From a virus: a stretch of DNA of 35,272 nucleotides. The notes below the pieces were generated by a model. It saw only the letters and a list, made by a program, of their open reading frames with translations, ran no database searches and was not told the origin of the DNA. The position numbers were made by a program, and so were the translations under genes. Each line of letters begins with the position of its first letter. The stretch's first letter is position 1. The stretch spans positions 1 through 35,272 of IMG/VR virus record IMGVR_UViG_3300029714_000026. One strand, 5' to 3'. Positions 1,564 through 35,272 of the stretch are shown piece after piece.

Positions 1564-1723
1564 TGCTCATGCCCTCCTCGGTGTTGGTGGCCTCGTCCTC
1601 GGTCGGGACATCGGCCAGAATGCACAGAAAATCCACCATAGACGCAATCTGTGCCAGATCTGCGTCCCGGTTTTCGTCCTCAGTCGCGGCCTGAATGCTG
1701 CCGGGCTTGTGAAGAATTTTCAT
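1556..1723 (-). CDS. Hypothetical 55-aa acidic protein, translationally coupled to the RT gene
   Basis: Manual translation: MKILHKPGSIQAATEDENRDADLAQIASMVDFLCILADVPTEDEATNTEEGMSNG. Its ATG overlaps the RT stop as ATGA (1720-1723). Confidence 0.45.
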   Translation of the reverse strand: MKILHKPGSIQAATEDENRDADLAQIASMVDFLCILADVPTEDEATNTEEGMSNG

Positions 1724-2754
1724 GTTATCCACTCCAAAAGAGATTTAACGTATTTATCCATGCGCTGCAGCAGCTGCTTGGAGTTGCCTTTTGCGGCATG
1801 GGCTTTCCATGATTTATACTGTTCGCGCAGAGCGGTGACGGGCTTTTCGCCCGCCTTGATAAGCTGGGCCAGCCTGTACAGGCGTTTCCGCTCTGCCTTA
1901 ACGTTTTGCGGGTCAACGGTCATTATGACCTTGCCCTCCGGTGTCAGGCGGTAGATAAAGCCGAGAAAACGGAAACCATCCCGCAGCCGGACTATTTTAG
2001 TCTTGGTCGGGTGTAGTTCCATTCCCTCGGTAGCATACCGGGCCCGGATGGCCTCCCGCCACTCCACCAGCTGCTCCCTGCTATGGTGACAGATCCAACT
2101 ATCATCCATAAAGCGGACATACTTGTCCGCACGCAGGCGCTCTTTGATGTAGTGATCTATGGGGTCAGGCACCGAGATCCCGGCCAACTGCACCATCTGG
2201 CTGCCCGGACTATAACCGGCCTCGCCGGTGTATTGGCGATCCAGCACGTCACGCACACGGGCATACACGTTGTATGGCAGTTTGCGCTCAAAGCGCTGGT
2301 TTGCCACCTCGTGCGGCATCGTATCGTAATAGTGCCGGATATCTACCAGCAGACACCAGCCGTCTGGGCCGTGCTGCCGGTATTCGCGTTCTATCATCAG
2401 CTTGACCTGCTGTCGGGCCCAGTCAGTGCCCTTGCCTGTCTGACAGGCCGCATTGTGCCGGATAAAGCCCTTTGACATGGCCGGATAGACGGCATTGTCA
2501 TTGAGTGAGCGCTGATATACCCTATCCCGGAAACTGGTAGCCACCGCCACGCGGGGCTTTGGATAGGTGATTTTGACTTTTGATGTTGGCCGTGCCCTGT
2601 ATGTGCCTGTGACAAGTTCCTGATGGAGTCTCAGGATCTCGTCCATGCCAAACAGGCAATATCTGCCCACGGCAGCCTTGCGGCGCACGCCTTTGGAGCA
2701 TTTGCCCATTGAGGTATACAGGGCATCAAAGCCGATTATTTCCTCTTCTTGCAC
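1720..2754 (-). CDS. Reverse transcriptase of a diversity-generating retroelement
   Basis: RT motif A LLVDIRHYYDTM, motif C YVRFMDDSWI (YxDD-type), SPGSQMVQLAG in the motif-B region. GTG start 12 nt after AGGAG. Lies immediately 3' of a TR/VR pair and an avd-like ORF. Confidence 0.9.
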   Translation of the reverse strand: MQEEEIIGFDALYTSMGKCSKGVRRKAAVGRYCLFGMDEILRLHQELVTGTYRARPTSKVKITYPKPRVAVATSFRDRVYQRSLNDNAVYPAMSKGFIRHNAACQTGKGTDWARQQVKLMIEREYRQHGPDGWCLLVDIRHYYDTMPHEVANQRFERKLPYNVYARVRDVLDRQYTGEAGYSPGSQMVQLAGISVPDPIDHYIKERLRADKYVRFMDDSWICHHSREQLVEWREAIRARYATEGMELHPTKTKIVRLRDGFRFLGFIYRLTPEGKVIMTVDPQNVKAERKRLYRLAQLIKAGEKPVTALREQYKSWKAHAAKGNSKQLLQRMDKYVKSLLEWIT

Positions 2755-3056
2755 TGTTTTTCAGTTCTCCTCGCAAGGAGCAGCCGGGTGATAGCGGTCA
2801 ACACCCCGCAGGGTGGCCACGTCCGGCGGCTATTGTTCGCCTGCCAGAGGGCAGGCATGGCACTCGGCTCCTTGCACGGCAGTTTTCGCCCGGCCCATGC
2901 TATGCAGAGGCTTTTGTGGGTTTGCTGCCGTCCAATCCGGGGCGCTGCGATTCGCGTTGATGCCGTTCCAGTTGTTCACATTGCCGGAACTGTTGACGTT
3001 GAAGGCGTTGTTGCCGTTGCCACGATTCGCAGAGCGCAGCCGCACATTGCGGCCCA
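2755..3056 (-). ncRNA. DGR template RNA region (TR plus TR-to-RT spacer)
   Basis: The non-coding stretch between avd and RT contains the TR (2933-3056) and a 178-nt structured spacer. Confidence 0.6.
2933..3056 (-). repeat. DGR template repeat (TR)
   Basis: 124-bp ungapped match to 3556-3679. All 16 mismatches sit at TR adenines on the minus strand. In the VR frame it is rich in AAC (Asn) codons. Confidence 0.92.
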
Positions 3057-3079
3057 ATAGCCTACAGCCATTTTTTATG

Positions 3080-3490
3080 TCAGAGCGATTTATACCGCTT
3101 TGCATCATTCTCGTGCCAGTCCCGGCAGCGCTGCCGGATATCTCGCACAGTACCGCCCCAGAAAACGCACCGCTTGCCGGAGAGATGGAAACTGACTTTT
3201 GCCATGTCCATCTCAGCCAGCAGGCGGGTACACAGACGGACGGCCTGCTTCTGGAGGTCAAGCCGGGCCTTTCTGGTTTCCGGCCCGTCCACCCGGATGC
3301 TGTTGGCCTCAAAGATATCAAAATATATCTGATCGGCAGTCGCACGCAGCTGGCCGGGGAGGTGCGCGTCAATCTCCGGGTCAAAGATCTTTGCGTTTTT
3401 GGTGATCTGTCTGGTGTACAGTGCCAGATCCCGTGCATCAAGCGGCAAAGTAAATTTGTTGTCCGGGATCTCGTCTTTGCGCATTGCCAT
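3080..3490 (-). CDS. avd: Accessory variability determinant (Avd-like four-helix-bundle protein)
   Basis: 136-aa basic helical ORF located between the target gene and TR, the canonical avd position and size. Confidence 0.75.
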   Translation of the reverse strand: MAMRKDEIPDNKFTLPLDARDLALYTRQITKNAKIFDPEIDAHLPGQLRATADQIYFDIFEANSIRVDGPETRKARLDLQKQAVRLCTRLLAEMDMAKVSFHLSGKRCVFWGGTVRDIRQRCRDWHENDAKRYKSL

Positions 3491-3507
3491 GTAAAGCCCT
3501 CACTTTC

Positions 3508-3533
3508 TCACCGGGCAAGGAATTGCCCGGTGA
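3508..3533 (-). promoter_or_regulatory. Perfect hairpin immediately 3' of the DGR target gene (DGR target-recognition hairpin and/or terminator)
   Basis: TCACCGGGCAA-GGAA-TTGCCCGGTGA: 11-bp stem and 4-nt loop, abutting the stop codon at 3534-3536. Confidence 0.7.
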
Positions 3534-4787
3534 TTATGCCAATTTGGTGATTTTGCAAGCCGGGGCGCTGCGAAGCGCGTAGATGCCGCTCCAGCTGCTC
3601 ACATAGCCGGAACTGTAGACGTAGAAGGCGTAGCTGCCGCCGCCACGAATCGCAGAGCGCAGCCGCACATGGCGGCCCACAGTACGCTGTGCCAGATCGC
3701 GGGTAATGCGCAGGGGATAAGTCTGCCACAGGGCCTGCGGGGTCTTTGCGCCGGTGCGCTCTTTCCAGTAGGGCCAATAGCTGCCCTCACCGGACACCTG
3801 CGGACTGCAATAGATCTCCTGCAGGGAGGGCAGGAAAATCTTGTCATAGGTCACAACGGCGCTGCCGTCATCGGTAACGCCGTTGCCGTAGGTCACGACT
3901 TTCACGCGGGACAAAGCGCTTTTGAAGTCATCAGAGAAGCCGGACAGGAAGCCGGGCAGGGTGTCGGCCTGATCGGGTTTCATGTCCCACTTATCCTGCG
4001 GCTGCCACCATGCGCCTGCCGCTGCGTCACTGTTCAGGTACTGCCGGTACGCGGATTTCCACCACCGGTTATCGCCATAGCCAACAGGATGCAGGCCGTT
4101 CAGATCGCCGTTTTCCTTGGCAAGGAAGGTGCCGAGATTGGTGCCAGCGCTGCCAGCGGTCACGCTGCAGGTTTCCAGCAGCTCAGATTTCTGCTGATCC
4201 TTGTAGACATAGACCTTCCAGTTGGCAGGCACAACGTCCGGCGCATTATAGAAGCCGGTCAGGCGGGCACCCGCCGGGGCCGCCTTGGTCAGGGTGAACT
4301 GATAGACCGCATCGGTCTTGACATTATTGCCCCAGTTCAGGCCCATCTTGACGTTGTAGGTGCCCGCCACAAGGCCGCCGTCAGGCACCACATAGAATGC
4401 CTGATAAGCAGAAAACTGCAGGTCATACAAGGTTGCATAGTGCATCTGCAACACCATTGCCGGGACCGTGGCGCCGCTCTCGCCCTCTGCGGTATCGTCC
4501 GGCTGCACCACATCCCACGGGCAGTCGTAGGCTTTGCCGTCCTTGCCCGTGTAGGTGTTCACCAGCTGGGTGCCGGTGGGGAAGGTAATCGGGGCGCTGC
4601 CAGCGTCCACAACGGCCTTGATGGCGTTATAATCCATCTCCTCAAAAATGCCGGTCTGTGCCTTTGCCAGCACGCCCAGCGAGGCAGACACGCCCAGCAT
4701 GGTGGCATTGAGCAGATCCAGCTTTGCACCGTTGGCTTTCGCGGTTTCGTCCAGATAGATCGGATCGGTTACCATAGATTCAGCCAT
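3534..4787 (-). CDS. DGR target protein: distal tail fibre / receptor-binding protein with a C-terminal C-type-lectin-like variable domain
   Basis: 417 aa with RBS GAAAGGAG. Last of the tail-fibre genes. The C-terminus ...RLRSAIRGGGSYAFYVYSSGYVSSWSGIYALRSAP is encoded by the VR. Confidence 0.85.
   Translation of the reverse strand: MAESMVTDPIYLDETAKANGAKLDLLNATMLGVSASLGVLAKAQTGIFEEMDYNAIKAVVDAGSAPITFPTGTQLVNTYTGKDGKAYDCPWDVVQPDDTAEGESGATVPAMVLQMHYATLYDLQFSAYQAFYVVPDGGLVAGTYNVKMGLNWGNNVKTDAVYQFTLTKAAPAGARLTGFYNAPDVVPANWKVYVYKDQQKSELLETCSVTAGSAGTNLGTFLAKENGDLNGLHPVGYGDNRWWKSAYRQYLNSDAAAGAWWQPQDKWDMKPDQADTLPGFLSGFSDDFKSALSRVKVVTYGNGVTDDGSAVVTYDKIFLPSLQEIYCSPQVSGEGSYWPYWKERTGAKTPQALWQTYPLRITRDLAQRTVGRHVRLRSAIRGGGSYAFYVYSSGYVSSWSGIYALRSAPACKITKLA
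3556..3679 (-). repeat. DGR variable repeat (VR)
   Basis: Matches the TR with 16 substitutions, only at TR-adenine positions. It encodes the last ~40 codons of the target gene. Confidence 0.92.
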
Positions 4788-4801
4788 GAGATTTACTCCT
4801 T

Positions 4802-5656
4802 TCAGGTTTTAGCGTATTTCATGCAGACTTTGCCGTTTACCACGACAAAGCCGCAGGATTCGAGTGCAGCCACGCGGGCAAGGGTGTTGGTGTAGTCCTC
4901 CGGGATGGTGGCCAGCACCTCCTCGCCCTTCTTCTCCACGGCAGCGGTGGCCGTGGTCTGTGCTTTGGCCACAGCACCGGTGGCGGTGCTCTGGGCAGTC
5001 TGGACAGCCTTTGTGGCAGTGGTCTGGGTGTCGGTCACGGCCTTGACCGCGCCGTTCTGGGCCTGCTGCACGGCATCCAGAGCGTCCTGCTTGCTGGTGC
5101 CAATGGCATCCAGCGCGTCAGCCTTTGCAGATTCTGCCGCTTTCTGGGCGCTCTCTGCCCGGCCTGCGGCTGTCTCAGCTTTGGACGCGGCCTTGGCGCT
5201 CCGATTGGTAGCACCGGCAGCAGCTTGGGCGGCCTGCTGGGCCTTGTTCGTCTCGTCCTTGACAGTGCCCACCAGAGCTTCCCACGCAGGGGTGCCCGGC
5301 TCCGGCTCTGTGCCGTCCTCTGTGCCGCTGTTGGCGCTGACACGATACCGCAGATCTGCACTTGTCACGGTGCGGGTGCCGTCGCTGCCCTCGAAGGTCA
5401 CGCACCCATTGCCGGGCTGTGCGGTCACGCTGGCGGGCACGGCCACATAGCCGTCCACCACCAGCGTGGACGCCGGTGCCCCGCCGCCCGGCAGGTGCCA
5501 GAATGCGCGGATGATCAGGCCCTGCCACTCGCCGGATGCGGTGACGTTGAGTTGGTACACGCCCCGGTTCTTGGTGTAGCCCAGCGCCAGCGCCGAGGCG
5601 TGCCCCGGCAGGCATACGCTGCCGCCGGATGTCAGCGTGATGGGGAACTCGATCAT
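4802..5656 (-). CDS. Tail fibre-associated structural protein with an Ala/Gln/Thr-rich coiled-coil
   Basis: 284 aa with RBS AAGGAGGTG. The central region is a low-complexity coiled coil (AQQAAQAAAGA...TATKAVQTAQSTATGAVAKAQTTATAAV). Located between tail fibre genes. Confidence 0.6.
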   Translation of the reverse strand: MIEFPITLTSGGSVCLPGHASALALGYTKNRGVYQLNVTASGEWQGLIIRAFWHLPGGGAPASTLVVDGYVAVPASVTAQPGNGCVTFEGSDGTRTVTSADLRYRVSANSGTEDGTEPEPGTPAWEALVGTVKDETNKAQQAAQAAAGATNRSAKAASKAETAAGRAESAQKAAESAKADALDAIGTSKQDALDAVQQAQNGAVKAVTDTQTTATKAVQTAQSTATGAVAKAQTTATAAVEKKGEEVLATIPEDYTNTLARVAALESCGFVVVNGKVCMKYAKT

Positions 5657-14595: not shown

Positions 14596-15471
14596 TCAGG
14601 CTTCGGTCTTGGTCAGCTTGTTGAACACGGTGGTGTCGCAGCGGAAGCCCACCTCGATCTCGGCACGCACGGCGAACATGTTCTGCTGGAACAGGTTGAT
14701 GGTGTTGGAACCGTCGGTCAGGGTGGCCTGGTCGGAAATTGCGATCTGCACGCCCTCCACGGTGCCGTACATGGCCTGCGACCAGTCACCGGCAAAGCCG
14801 ACAACGTGCTTCTTGGCGGCAGTGGAATCCGCGATGTAGGCACCCTTGCTCTGCAGGGTCTTTGCGCCCAGGATCATGGGCACGGCACCCTCGGCCACGT
14901 TGTTCAGGAACAGCGGACGGCCGGTGGTGTCCACGGCGTTCAGCAGGGCGGCCTTGCCCTTGGGGGACAGCACCCAGCCGTTCAGGATGCCGTTGTGGTC
15001 GGAGATGTCGGCGTCGGCAGCCACAAGGCCCTGATAGGCATTGGTGCCGATCTCCTGCGCGGTGCAGCTCTTCAGGGTGTCGAAGTTGGAGCCCGGCACG
15101 GTGACGCCGCCAAACACCGTGGCGTCGAACTTCTGGGCCAGTGCCAGCGGCAGACGCTTCACCAGCTCATCGTACAGGGCCGGCACATCGCGGCGGAACT
15201 GGTTGGAAAAGGGCACGATGACGGCCAGCGTGTAGGGCTGCATGACCTTGGTGGCCAGCGTGCCGCGCTTGACGGGCTTCTTGTCGGTCTCGCCGACCCA
15301 TGCGGCCTCCGGGTCGCCGGTGATGACCGGAATGGTCACGCCCAGGCCCGGCAGCTTGATGGAGCGGGCCAGCGCCATGACGGCGGAGCTCTCCTGCGTT
15401 TTCTGCAGGATCTCGCTGGACACCTCACCGGGCAGGGTGATGGTGGTAGTGCGGTTGATATCAGTTGCCAT
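14596..15471 (-). CDS. Major capsid protein, HK97-fold family
   Basis: 291 aa. LPGEVSSEILQKTQESSAVMALA...PEAAWVGETDKKPV...LAVIVPFSNQFRRD matches the conserved N-terminal pattern of Phage_capsid-type proteins. Preceded by a scaffold gene. Confidence 0.85.
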   Translation of the reverse strand: MATDINRTTTITLPGEVSSEILQKTQESSAVMALARSIKLPGLGVTIPVITGDPEAAWVGETDKKPVKRGTLATKVMQPYTLAVIVPFSNQFRRDVPALYDELVKRLPLALAQKFDATVFGGVTVPGSNFDTLKSCTAQEIGTNAYQGLVAADADISDHNGILNGWVLSPKGKAALLNAVDTTGRPLFLNNVAEGAVPMILGAKTLQSKGAYIADSTAAKKHVVGFAGDWSQAMYGTVEGVQIAISDQATLTDGSNTINLFQQNMFAVRAEIEVGFRCDTTVFNKLTKTEA

Positions 15472-15490
15472 AGAAAAAACTCCTTTGCTG

Positions 15491-15979
15491 TTACTTGGTC
15501 ACCTGCGCGAACCAGTCAGCAAACTGCTGGCGGGTGGAGCCGGTGGGTTTGTTGCGGACTTCGCCGCCGTCCCGGATGCTGGGGTAGCCGGGCTGTGCAA
15601 ACTTGAGGATGGCCTGTGCCTGTGCGGTACAAGCCTCTTCGGTGTCGCCGGAAAGCAGTTCGGCAGGCACGCCGGTGGCGGCCGCCACCTTGCCGCGGAT
15701 GTCCCGCAGGGTGTTGGCCTTGGTCATGCTGTCCAGCTGCGCCTGCAGCTTTGCGGCCTTCTCGTTTGCCTTCTGCAGCTCGGTCTTGCCCGCTTCCTGC
15801 GCGGCATCGAACTGCTGGGCCTTGGCCTTCAGATCGTCGTAGTCGGCGTATTTGGAGCGCTCCCGGCTCAGCCGGTCGGAGATGATGGCGTTCATCTCGG
15901 CCTGGGTGAAGGTGCGCTCATTGTTCTGCTGCCCCTCGGCAGCGGGGGTGGTGGGTTCCTGGTGTACAGTTTCTGCCAT
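15491..15979 (-). CDS. Capsid scaffolding protein
   Basis: 162-aa charged helical protein (FTQAEMNAIISDRLSRERSKYADYDDLKAKA...) immediately upstream of the capsid gene. Confidence 0.75.
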   Translation of the reverse strand: MAETVHQEPTTPAAEGQQNNERTFTQAEMNAIISDRLSRERSKYADYDDLKAKAQQFDAAQEAGKTELQKANEKAAKLQAQLDSMTKANTLRDIRGKVAAATGVPAELLSGDTEEACTAQAQAILKFAQPGYPSIRDGGEVRNKPTGSTRQQFADWFAQVTK

Positions 15980-16044: not shown

Positions 16045-16121
16045 TGGCACCGTCTGGAGGTATCGAACCTCCCGCTTCCGGTTTTGGAGACCGGCGCTCT
16101 TCCAGAATGAGCTAAGACGGC
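16045..16121 (-). tRNA. Phage-encoded tRNA-Trp (anticodon CCA)
   Basis: 77 nt reading GCCGTCT-TA-GCTC-ATTCTGGAA-GAGC-G-CCGGT-CTCCAAA-ACCGG-AAGCG-GGAGG-TTCGATA-CCTCC-AGACGGT-G-CCA. Canonical cloverleaf with G1:U72, G73 and encoded CCA. Confidence 0.85.
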
Positions 16122-21308: not shown

Positions 21309-21384
21309 TGGAGCCGTTGGCCGGACTTGAACCGGCATCGTGACCCGCCCTGACCGGACGGTGCTCTGCTTGAGCTACAACGGC
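21309..21384 (-). tRNA. Non-canonical tRNA-like gene (76 nt, encoded CCA; anticodon position reads GUC/Asp)
   Basis: Reads GCCGTTG-TA-GCTC-AAGCA-GAGC-A-CCGTC-CGGTCAG-GGCGG-GTCACGAT-GCCGG-TTCAAGT-CCGGC-CAACGGC-T-CCA. Perfect 7-bp acceptor and 5-bp T-stem with a canonical T-loop. But the D-loop is 5 nt without GG, position 33 is G, and the variable region is 8 nt. Confidence 0.6.
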
Positions 21385-33972: not shown

Positions 33973-35100
33973 TTGAAATGTCAGAGAACCGCCTGCGGGC
34001 GGGATATCCCAGAGGACGCGCTGTTTTGCCCCTACTGCGGGAAAAAGCAGCAGCGCACGGCAGCGCCAAAGCCGCGCAAGCGTGCCAATGGCAAAGGCAG
34101 CGTGTACCGCCGGGGAAAATCATGGTGCGCGCAGTCGCGTATATATCGCGGCGGCGTTCTGGTGTTTGAGCGCATAAAAGGCGGCTTTCCCACACGGGCG
34201 GCAGCTGAGGAATATCTGGACGGATACACCCGCACCGGTGTGGCACCCAGATCCATGCGCCTGATTGACTGCTGGATGGCCTTGCAGGAAACAAAAAAGT
34301 GGCAGGCCCTCAGCAAGGACAAGCGCAGCCATTATGGCACCGCATGGCGCAGGCTGGAACGGATTCAAATGCAGGTCGTTGGGCAGATTCCCTTTAAGGT
34401 ACTGCAGGAACTGACGGATGCCGCGCCCGGTGACTACTATGCCCACAGGGATATAAAAACGCTTCTGGGCAAGCTGTATGAGGTAGCCGTTACCAGCGAG
34501 GCGCTGGACATGGCGCAGGACAAAACGGCCCTGATCGAACTGCCACCGGTGCCAGACAGCGAGAGGGACGCTTACACCGTGGACGAGGTACACGGGATGT
34601 GGATGGCATACCGCGCCGGGGACGATCTGGCCCGGTATGCGCTAATCCTGTGCTATACCGGCATGAGGCCGGGCGAGTTGATGCAGCTGGATCTCTCCAA
34701 CATCGACTTGCAGCGGCAGCGCATTGTGGGCGGTATTAAGACGGCAGCGGGCAAAAACCGGGAGATCCCCATAGTCACGGCCATTGTGCCGCTGGTGGCC
34801 GAGGCCATGCAGGTGGCCACCCACGGTCTGGCCGATGGCTGCCGTGAGCACTTCTATGATCGCTGGTGTCCGTCCGTGGAGCGCTGGGGAGGAAGGCCAC
34901 ACATGACGGCCCACAGCTGCCGTCACACGCTGGCAACGGCTATGGAGGCCGCCGGGGTGTCGGTGCTGCTGCAAAAGCTGATCCTTGGGCACGCTGTCAA
35001 GGATATCACGCAGCATTACAGCCGCCACCAGCCTTTTGAGGATAAGCTGGCCGCCGTTGAGCGTGCAACGGCCATTTTTAACGAGGATGCGGGTAGCTGA
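33973..35100 (+). CDS. int: Tyrosine integrase with an N-terminal zinc-ribbon
   Basis: TTG start 8 nt after GGAGGT. CQRTACGRDIPEDALFCPYCG. Catalytic pattern YTGMRPGEL (R), HSCRHTLAT (H-x-x-R), LGHAVKDITQHY (H...Y). Adjacent to attR. Confidence 0.88.
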   Translation: MKCQRTACGRDIPEDALFCPYCGKKQQRTAAPKPRKRANGKGSVYRRGKSWCAQSRIYRGGVLVFERIKGGFPTRAAAEEYLDGYTRTGVAPRSMRLIDCWMALQETKKWQALSKDKRSHYGTAWRRLERIQMQVVGQIPFKVLQELTDAAPGDYYAHRDIKTLLGKLYEVAVTSEALDMAQDKTALIELPPVPDSERDAYTVDEVHGMWMAYRAGDDLARYALILCYTGMRPGELMQLDLSNIDLQRQRIVGGIKTAAGKNREIPIVTAIVPLVAEAMQVATHGLADGCREHFYDRWCPSVERWGGRPHMTAHSCRHTLATAMEAAGVSVLLQKLILGHAVKDITQHYSRHQPFEDKLAAVERATAIFNEDAGS

Positions 35101-35156: not shown

Positions 35157-35218
35157 CTGCTAAGGGCGTAGGTCGTCTAAACAACGGCGCGAGGGTTCAA
35201 ATCCCTCCTACTCCGCCA
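35157..35218 (+). tRNA. Phage-borne 3' half of tRNA-Ser(GCU) (fragment, not a complete gene)
   Basis: CTGCTAA anticodon-loop-like heptamer, GGGCG, a long variable arm (GTCGT-CTAAACA-ACGGC), then T-arm, acceptor 3' strand, G73 and CCA. No matching 5' acceptor strand (GGAGTAG) upstream. Confidence 0.65.
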
Positions 35219-35272
35219 AGAAAATCCCTCGTAGTTTCGTGAAAACTGCGGGGGGTTTTCCATTTGTACAGA
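35174..35272 (+). repeat. attR: right copy of the 99-bp direct repeat
   Basis: Identical to 1-99. The window ends with the repeat. Confidence 0.9.

Follow-up and report, generated by a model that had tools for sequence, protein, structure and literature searches.

A probable BPP-1-type diversity-generating retroelement with a DUF6273 target in a Faecalibacterium prophage

We analyzed a stretch of viral DNA of 35,272 nucleotides (nt), IMG/VR record IMGVR_UViG_3300029714_000026 (positions 1 to 35,272; hereafter, the window), that carries a retroelement cassette on its minus strand. In our assessment, the cassette is very probably a bona fide diversity-generating retroelement (DGR) of the type found in Bordetella phage BPP-1, residing in a temperate, siphovirus-like Faecalibacterium prophage of ~35 kb. 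It combines the anatomy of a DGR with adenine-specific repeat divergence, homologous parts, conserved structures in both RNA and DNA, and natural populations that show diversification. Target, avd, template repeat (TR), and reverse transcriptase (RT) follow one another on one strand, the order of mtd-avd-TR-brt in BPP-1, as an earlier note on this DNA had claimed. Its open reading frames (ORFs) also hold: 417 amino acids (aa) at 3534 to 4787, 136 aa at 3080 to 3490, and a 344-aa RT with FMDD at 1720 to 2754, all on the minus strand. The target gene and the two repeats are as follows.

3534 to 4787, minus strand: DGR target gene, 417 aa (Pfam DUF6273 at 1.5e-11; AlphaFold2 [AF2] model with a predicted local distance difference test [pLDDT] score of 91.4)
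3556 to 3679, minus strand: variable repeat (VR), encoding aa 371 to 411, with diversified codons 373 to 405; gapless match to the TR and site of the variable residues of cluster members
2933 to 3056, minus strand: TR; it contains 30 adenines and, read in the VR frame, 13 AAC/AAT codons

The TR and VR align without gaps over 124 nt at an offset of 623, with 16 mismatches, and the counts of the earlier note were reproduced exactly. All 16 mismatches lie at a plus-strand T, that is, an A on the coding (minus) strand, and the TR has 30 such positions; the hypergeometric probability of all mismatches being confined to 30 of the 124 positions is 2.7e-12. An independent repeat search returned the pair as the longest direct repeat of the window (87% identity), and neither a second VR nor a further copy of the repeat skeleton was found on either strand of the window. 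Read in the VR frame, for which the TR and VR translations quoted earlier are correct, the TR adenines occupy codon position 1 in 16 cases and position 2 in 14 cases but never position 3, and the codons that contain them are 13 AAC/AAT (Asn) codons together with AGT, ATC, AGC, and GAT. The tally of 16 adenine-only mismatches stands, but the one at 2936/3559 (TR GGATTG versus VR GGCTTG) is not a diversified site, being a fixed A/C difference in relatives.

Adenine-restricted VR heterogeneity among relatives, the absence of which was one of the results that the earlier note had named as refuting its reading, was strongly evident. The exact target protein of the window is one of the 1779 sequences of a cluster at 90% identity, from which 14 other members were read; ten of these share the backbone of the window. 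Between them, the ten show 114 residue differences from the window, 110 within aa 373 to 405, and 108 of those at codons that contain TR adenines. Backbones with 0 to 1 substitutions outside the VR have 9 to 14 inside. Scanning IMG/VR with the RT yielded 68 loci, 54 with a recognizable TR/VR pair; in these 54, a total of 836 of 902 TR/VR mismatches fall at TR adenines, and 52 distinct VRs are represented. Among 25 loci with one identical TR, per-site diversity was 0.58 at adenine sites versus 0.004 at the other 95 VR sites. This diversity comparison uses the VR and the preceding 96 nt, as a gene-wide baseline of target diversity at fixed offsets was invalid upstream of approximately −97 nt, where indels shift the register. 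More distant relatives, with RTs 45 to 50% identical, share this layout, and their mismatches are A specific as well. Plain duplication followed by ordinary mutation and selection, or recombination between fiber alleles, would involve no retroelement and has nothing in its favor beyond the bare repeat. Such an origin is effectively refuted by the confinement of all 16 mismatches to adenines, by the same restriction in the 54 loci and in distant relatives, by the near invariance of non-A sites in the VR, and by the adjacent RT and Avd homologue.

In the 25 loci with the same TR, 58% of adenine cells are substituted, which is close to the 52% misincorporation measured for the BPP-1 reverse transcriptase, bRT, in vitro (PMC7826257). 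VR bases at TR adenines in these loci are A (42%), G (31%), T (16%), and C (12%), with G the commonest replacement, whereas misincorporation of dATP, which leads to T in the sense strand, was reported to be the commonest error of bRT in vitro. The difference may be due to selection on codons. Some TR adenines outside Asn codons hardly change, including an AGC at TR offset 68 (diversity of 0.0 in the 25-locus lineage) and, in the window, those at S392 (AGT) and S407 (AGC). Presumably, the unchanging serine adenines reflect purifying selection on serines of the scaffold, although the constancy of S407 may instead stem from nearness to the start of the cDNA.

The RT gene and its motifs lie downstream of the TR on the same strand.

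1720 to 2754, minus strand: DGR RT, 344 aa, GTG start (RVT_1 at 2.4e-13; PHROG 1423 at 9e-68, 230 bits)
2551 to 2562, minus strand: fingers motif PKPR
2323 to 2346, minus strand: motif A, with D138
2188 to 2208, minus strand: PGSQMVQ, a motif B variant (aa 183 to 189)
2101 to 2112, minus strand: catalytic FMDD

By sequence, the closest solved relative of the RT is bRT (8ub7; E value of 3.4e-16, 62.5 bits), with residues 6 to 333 aligned to 12 to 320, versus 39 and 29 bits for group II RTs in the same PDB comparison. The group II model TIGR04416 scored 79.8 bits against a cutoff of 300, PADLOC retron RT models scored no more than 16 bits, and the window gave no Rfam match to a group II intron RNA or a retron RNA family. 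The window thus has neither the ribozyme RNA and threshold-level RT of a group II intron nor the retron RT and msr/msd of a retron. Whether the RT would side with group II or retron enzymes had been raised beforehand; its best PDB relative, PHROG match, and model scores place it with DGR RTs, a placement based on scores and not on phylogeny. In the alignment, bRT R74 (within PKPR), the catalytic aspartates, and Q187 are conserved.

The signature motif of domain 4 in DGR RTs is [I/V/L]GxxxSQ (PMC3521204, PMC7826257), the final Q of which separates it from QGxxxSP of group II RTs. Schillinger et al. found SQ in 90% of DGRs and VQ endings in functional DGRs, with (L/I/V)G almost invariant (PMC3521204); the SQ ending is therefore typical but not obligatory. 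The variant of the window belongs to a group of related enzymes, since PGSQ[IML][IV]Q occurs in 118 of 119 RT homologues, down to 48% identity, from gut Faecalibacterium and Lachnospiraceae sources. In bRT, I181 promotes adenine mutagenesis in vitro (PMC7826257), and the RT of the window has Pro at this position. This clade nonetheless clearly mutagenizes adenines.

Between the TR and the target gene lies the third protein-coding part of the cassette.

3080 to 3490, minus strand: avd-like accessory gene, 136 aa, isoelectric point of 9.27 (PHROG 3206 and AF2 fold)

Over aa 5 to 134, the protein has an E value of 5.6e-7 against PHROG 3206 ("Avd protein of DGR"), in line with the proposal that it is Avd like. 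Its AF2 model (pLDDT of 65) is a four-helix bundle, so that the small, basic four-helix-bundle accessory protein expected of a DGR is present. Top fold matches of the model were 2gsc and 2rld (probability of 0.99 to 1.0, E value of 0.04 to 0.4), which are members of the 23S-IVS/S23 family that includes Avd. The sequence family is narrow (28 matches). Since searches of Pfam and NCBIfam gave nothing useful, and searches of PDB sequences with the single sequence and with a profile gave no meaningful match, the Avd assignment is founded on PHROG and the fold.

The target protein was modeled with AF2 on an alignment of 72 sequences. The model has a low-confidence N-terminal helix, a beta-sandwich at aa ~74 to 221, and a C-terminal DUF6273 domain at aa ~225 to 417 that bears the VR; this domain is mixed alpha/beta, and the VR covers its four to five final strands. 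Among solved structures, only the DUF6273 domain 9qa6 is significantly similar to the domain that bears the VR; it matches aa ~213 to 401 in both fold (Foldseek E value of 6.6e-7) and profile (E value of 6.4e-7) at 19% identity. A single-sequence PDB search with the target found nothing, and similarity between the domain and Mtd was undetected by sequence or by hidden Markov model (HMM). The family comprises 1618 representatives at 50% clustering, and the module at aa ~50 to 413 is often the C terminus of relatives' proteins, which reach 1287 aa. DUF6273 (window 3534 to 4200; target aa ~213 to 401) is a binding module common to gut bacteria and their phages. The target gene closes a run that encodes the tape measure protein, Dit, Tal (Sipho_Gp37), and two proteins of 406 aa and 284 aa; XkdX-like, endolysin, and holin genes come next. 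As the earlier note had it, the VR is at the C terminus of the 417-aa protein; its label of tail fiber, in contrast, reflects the position of the gene alone. A receptor-binding role would fit this position.

Two further elements lie at and just beyond the 3' end of the VR. Initiation of mutagenic homing (IMH) is the function assigned to the corresponding VR end in DGRs, with IMH* as its TR counterpart.

3556 to 3568, minus strand: IMH-like, GC-rich VR 3' end GCGCCCCGGCTTG; the TR end is GCGCCCCGGATTG (2933 to 2945), with one fixed A/C difference
3508 to 3533, minus strand: hairpin/cruciform with an 11-bp stem and a 4-nt loop, directly after the target stop codon; candidate target-recognition structure

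The A/C difference at 2936/3559 is constant in nearly all related loci, including one (L059) with an RT only 50% identical. As it is fixed across lineages, it represents an IMH/IMH*-type distinction. The hairpin lies 22 nt beyond the end of TR/VR homology and has a DNA fold z score of −3.56; close relatives retain it, and in the same place L059 has a hairpin whose sequence differs. Homing in BPP-1 needs a hairpin with a GC-rich stem of 7 to 10 bp and a 4-nt GRNA loop, located 4 to 34 bp after the VR (Guo et al., PMC3240598). The combination of an IMH that differs from IMH* with a post-VR hairpin that has a 4-nt loop (PMC3240598) is thus present at this locus, where, by analogy, the hairpin may take part in homing.

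The structure of the DGR RNA was predicted from an alignment of the TR 3' end and the spacer from eight loci in three lineages.

2755 to 2932, minus strand: spacer (Sp) of the DGR RNA, 178 nt, between TR and RT (RNAalifold, 8 loci)
3058 to 3066, minus strand: motif TGTAGGCTA, directly 5' of the TR; candidate upstream element of the DGR RNA

RNAalifold yielded 28 pairs in six helices, with compensatory changes in 15 of the 28. Paired cells amounted to 95%, versus 35 to 40% when partners were slid by 1 to 3 columns, and no shuffle matched the observed covariation. In the predicted structure, nested helices are closed by pairing of GCCCC at the TR 3' end with the invariant spacer motif GCAAGGAGCCGA (2864 to 2875), and a further hairpin lies at 2839 to 2856. 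The structured TR-spacer RNA of a DGR, with pairing of TR 3' end and spacer, was therefore recovered, with the proviso that the outermost helix (TR GCCCC:Sp GGAGC) never varies, so that covariation says nothing for or against it. If cDNA synthesis started just 5' of the GCCCC duplex, the fixed A/C site in GGATTG would be constant because it is never copied. The motif 5' of the TR has a core, GTAGGCTA, that recurs in each of the five other lineages examined, even where the RT is only 45 to 50% identical, and TGTAGGCTA is probably part of an upstream DGR RNA element; a conserved pairing partner for this motif was not found. A cPRT-stop-like duplex, in which GGCUAUUG 5' of the TR can pair with CAAUAGCC of the spacer, is not claimed, as the complementarity is lost in one related locus (L008) and in distant lineages.

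The mechanism that we propose follows the Bordetella phage by analogy. A transcript of the TR and the 178-nt spacer would fold to bring the GC-rich 3' end of the TR into pairing with the conserved spacer motif, and the RT with the Avd-like protein would copy the TR into cDNA from just upstream of that duplex; priming in this manner is suggested by the BPP-1 precedent. C, G, and U would be copied faithfully, while opposite adenine the RT would insert any base, roughly half the time. At the target gene's 3' end, the cDNA would then take the place of the VR, with the GC-rich, IMH-like end and the hairpin after the stop codon as guides. As the adenines of the TR are confined to the first two positions of 13 Asn codons, plus one Ile codon, each round would rerandomize ~13 to 14 residues on a beta-strand and loop surface of the C-terminal, C-lectin-like DUF6273 domain. 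The scaffold should remain unharmed, and AAC and AAT cannot yield a stop codon. With the target gene at the end of the tail-tip module, the likely benefit would be altered binding of the virion on Faecalibacterium or in the gut.

Several observations weigh against a functional DGR of the BPP-1 type that acts on a tail fiber. An identical VR variant occurs on several contigs, which may be one sample assembled repeatedly. The Avd call combines a modest HMM score with a medium-confidence model, and the Avd of BPP-1 (bAvd) was not among the top 50 fold matches of that model. The RT lacks canonical [I/V/L]GxxxSQ; in PGSQMVQ, the G and the final Q are kept, and the first and sixth residues are P and V. 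The GRNA-type loop of the post-VR hairpin is on the antisense strand (GGAA, or GGGA in relatives), and the sense strand reads TTCC. Canonical C-type lectins were weak fold matches of the target, and the fold search did not independently demonstrate a C-type lectin fold. Finally, the tail-fiber role is positional, and PHROG matches of the DUF6273 region include PHROG 10993, "Hoc-like head decoration."

The recurrence of one VR variant on more than one contig would also fit a real DGR of which this copy is a silent relic, so that the VR/TR differences record past activity of the lineage. In a published study of Faecalibacterium, four of six DGR-bearing (pro)phages gave no clear read-level signal when sequenced (PMC11792537). 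We regard a relic as very unlikely, however, because no part is damaged (the RT is full length with catalytic FMDD, avd is uninterrupted, the TR retains all 30 adenines, and the IMH-like end and hairpin are present) and because 0 to 1 substitutions outside the VR versus 9 to 14 inside indicate very recent activity in this exact lineage. The population-level proxy, as read from sequence comparisons, is strongly positive, and this prophage copy may itself be capable of retrohoming.

The PHROG 10993 match bears on a different question, namely, whether a real DGR diversifies not a tail fiber or receptor-binding protein but another adhesin of the virion surface or a secreted one, such as a head decoration or a "tentaclin"-like protein that binds mucus or molecules of the host gut. 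DUF6273 is also the N-terminal domain of a secreted IgA protease, and published DUF6273 targets of DGRs include Ig-domain tentaclins, which were proposed to bind intestinal or immune cells (PMC10743442). The gene, however, ends the run from the tape measure protein through Dit and Tal to the target, directly before XkdX, holin, and endolysin genes, and the AF2 model of its product has no Ig-like or Fn3 repeats. The module at aa ~50 to 413 is C terminal in relatives' longer proteins, as in modular fibers, and a related target in phage Pioen has an A511 tail fiber-like N-terminal domain (PMC11792537). A role as another adhesin is therefore unlikely in our view, though it deserves some weight, and a DGR that diversifies a tail-tip protein is the reading that we retain.

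About a quarter of the related contigs have TR copies (TR copies at ~3696 to 3820) that are short of 3 to 17 adenines and changed almost solely at adenine positions (L013, L022 to L024, L041, L046, L047, L049, L050, L052, L053, L056, and L058). The changed block of the TR equals the contig's own VR in L024, L053, L058, L022, and L046 and differs from it in L047 and L041. The likeliest explanation is that the depleted TRs are chimeras of metagenome assembly, in which the TR was joined with a mixed VR population. It is quite unlikely, in comparison, that they reflect backward flow in real genomes through conversion of TR by VR or homing into the TR. If it did occur, backward flow would erode the template and would offer a natural route for DGRs to freeze or die, contrary to the usual view of an invariant, IMH*-protected TR.

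Because the TR copies coding sequence, ORFs that cover it are by-products and not genes. Two candidates were rejected for this reason, a 203-aa ORF in the window (2830 to 3441, minus strand) and a 92-aa gene in the public annotation of a related scaffold (L001, 11680 to 11958), both of which are the TR read in the VR frame. One database protein (P0146) consists of Avd fused to the TR reading frame.

In comparison with the BPP-1 DGR, the cassette shares the strand logic, a VR at the 3' end of the target, A-only differences, and adenines in AAC/AAT codons. Also in common are a GC-rich, IMH-like end at which TR and VR differ, a 4-nt-loop hairpin soon after the VR, a four-helix protein resembling Avd, and an RT that can be aligned to bRT over its full length; the predicted pairing of TR 3' end and spacer resembles that in the bRT-Avd ribonucleoprotein. 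The two differ in that the target here is a DUF6273 protein and not Mtd, the RT motif is PGSQMVQ versus IGSLTSQ, and Avd is too divergent for detection by Pfam or PDB sequence searches. The hairpin here has an 11-bp stem and an antisense GRNA-type loop, the spacer measures 178 nt versus ~140 nt, and the phage has a Gram-positive anaerobe of the gut as its host.

Reports of DGR-rich Faecalibacterium prophages appeared in 2018 and 2024, and the 2024 study found read-level DGR activity in two of them (Microbiol Spectr, PMC11792537). Phages Roos, Pioen, Lelie, and CP11 of that study have the same host genus and DUF6273 targets with the VR at the C terminus of the domain, and VR variation among cognate IMG/VR genomes was likewise taken as evidence of activity (PMC11792537). 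In contrast to the ~35-kb prophage with one VR described here, they are 52 to 54 kb, and Lelie and CP11 have two VRs. In gut phages nd4 and nd12 (Int J Mol Sci 2023, PMC10743442), DUF6273 also carries the VR as a beta-hairpin-rich surface, and their genomes are weak tblastn matches of the target (H5 and H6). The tentaclins (PMC10743442) have an N-terminal DUF6273 followed by Ig-like domains, unlike the target here, in which DUF6273 is C terminal, follows a beta-sandwich, and is free of Ig-like repeats. The N-terminal DUF6273 of the Thomasclavelia ramosa IgA protease (9qa6; EMBO J 2025, PMC12402451) has a fold similar to that of the VR-bearing domain but belongs to a bacterial secreted peptidase and is not diversified by a DGR.

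The DGR is mechanistically ordinary, and DUF6273-targeting DGRs of Faecalibacterium prophages were already published in 2024. As DGRs are well understood and common in temperate phages of the gut, there is little here that is conceptually new. Its value is that of a clean, compact example, a 35-kb prophage with defined attachment (att) sites in tRNA-Ser and a single VR, together with a large natural series of VRs on near-identical backbones, a spacer RNA backed by covariation, and an RT clade that is A mutagenic although it lacks the canonical I181-equivalent residue. In combination, these features make it a convenient comparator for work on the mechanism of bRT and for asking how binding proteins are retargeted in phages that infect an important commensal of the gut that is hard to culture.

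The remainder of the window is that of a temperate phage genome, with an integrase, an S24 repressor, a DnaB helicase, a terminase, a capsid protein, and tail genes. Searches of a phage collection gave no megablast match for window positions 1600 to 4900 and only tblastn matches of no more than 41% identity for the target. The first 99 nt (1 to 99) are identical to the last 99 nt (35174 to 35272) and hold a tRNA 3' end (T-arm, acceptor stem, and CCA). In L001, a 173-kb scaffold from a gut metagenome in which the same prophage occurs at 99.9% identity, this repeat maps to the 3' part of tRNA-Ser(GCT) (15390 to 15529); the terminal repeats are therefore the att cores of a prophage in tRNA-Ser. 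A circular genome closed by the 99-nt repeat was rejected as an interpretation, since the repeat is host tRNA-Ser in L001. A tyrosine integrase gene (33973 to 35100, plus strand) adjoins the right att copy. A Faecalibacterium metagenome-assembled genome holds a copy of the prophage that is 95 to 97% identical, and the host is Faecalibacterium.

Genes for tRNA-Trp(CCA) and tRNA-Asp(GTC) were predicted on the minus strand at 16045 to 16121 and 21309 to 21384, the former with an Rfam score of 58.6 bits and the latter by ARAGORN only, below the Rfam gathering score. Where the window has positions 1 to 364, L001 (14424 to 15389) has a different segment of ~970 nt between holin and att, including a 116-aa gene with a Spo0A_C domain, which looks like a moron swapped at the end of the prophage.

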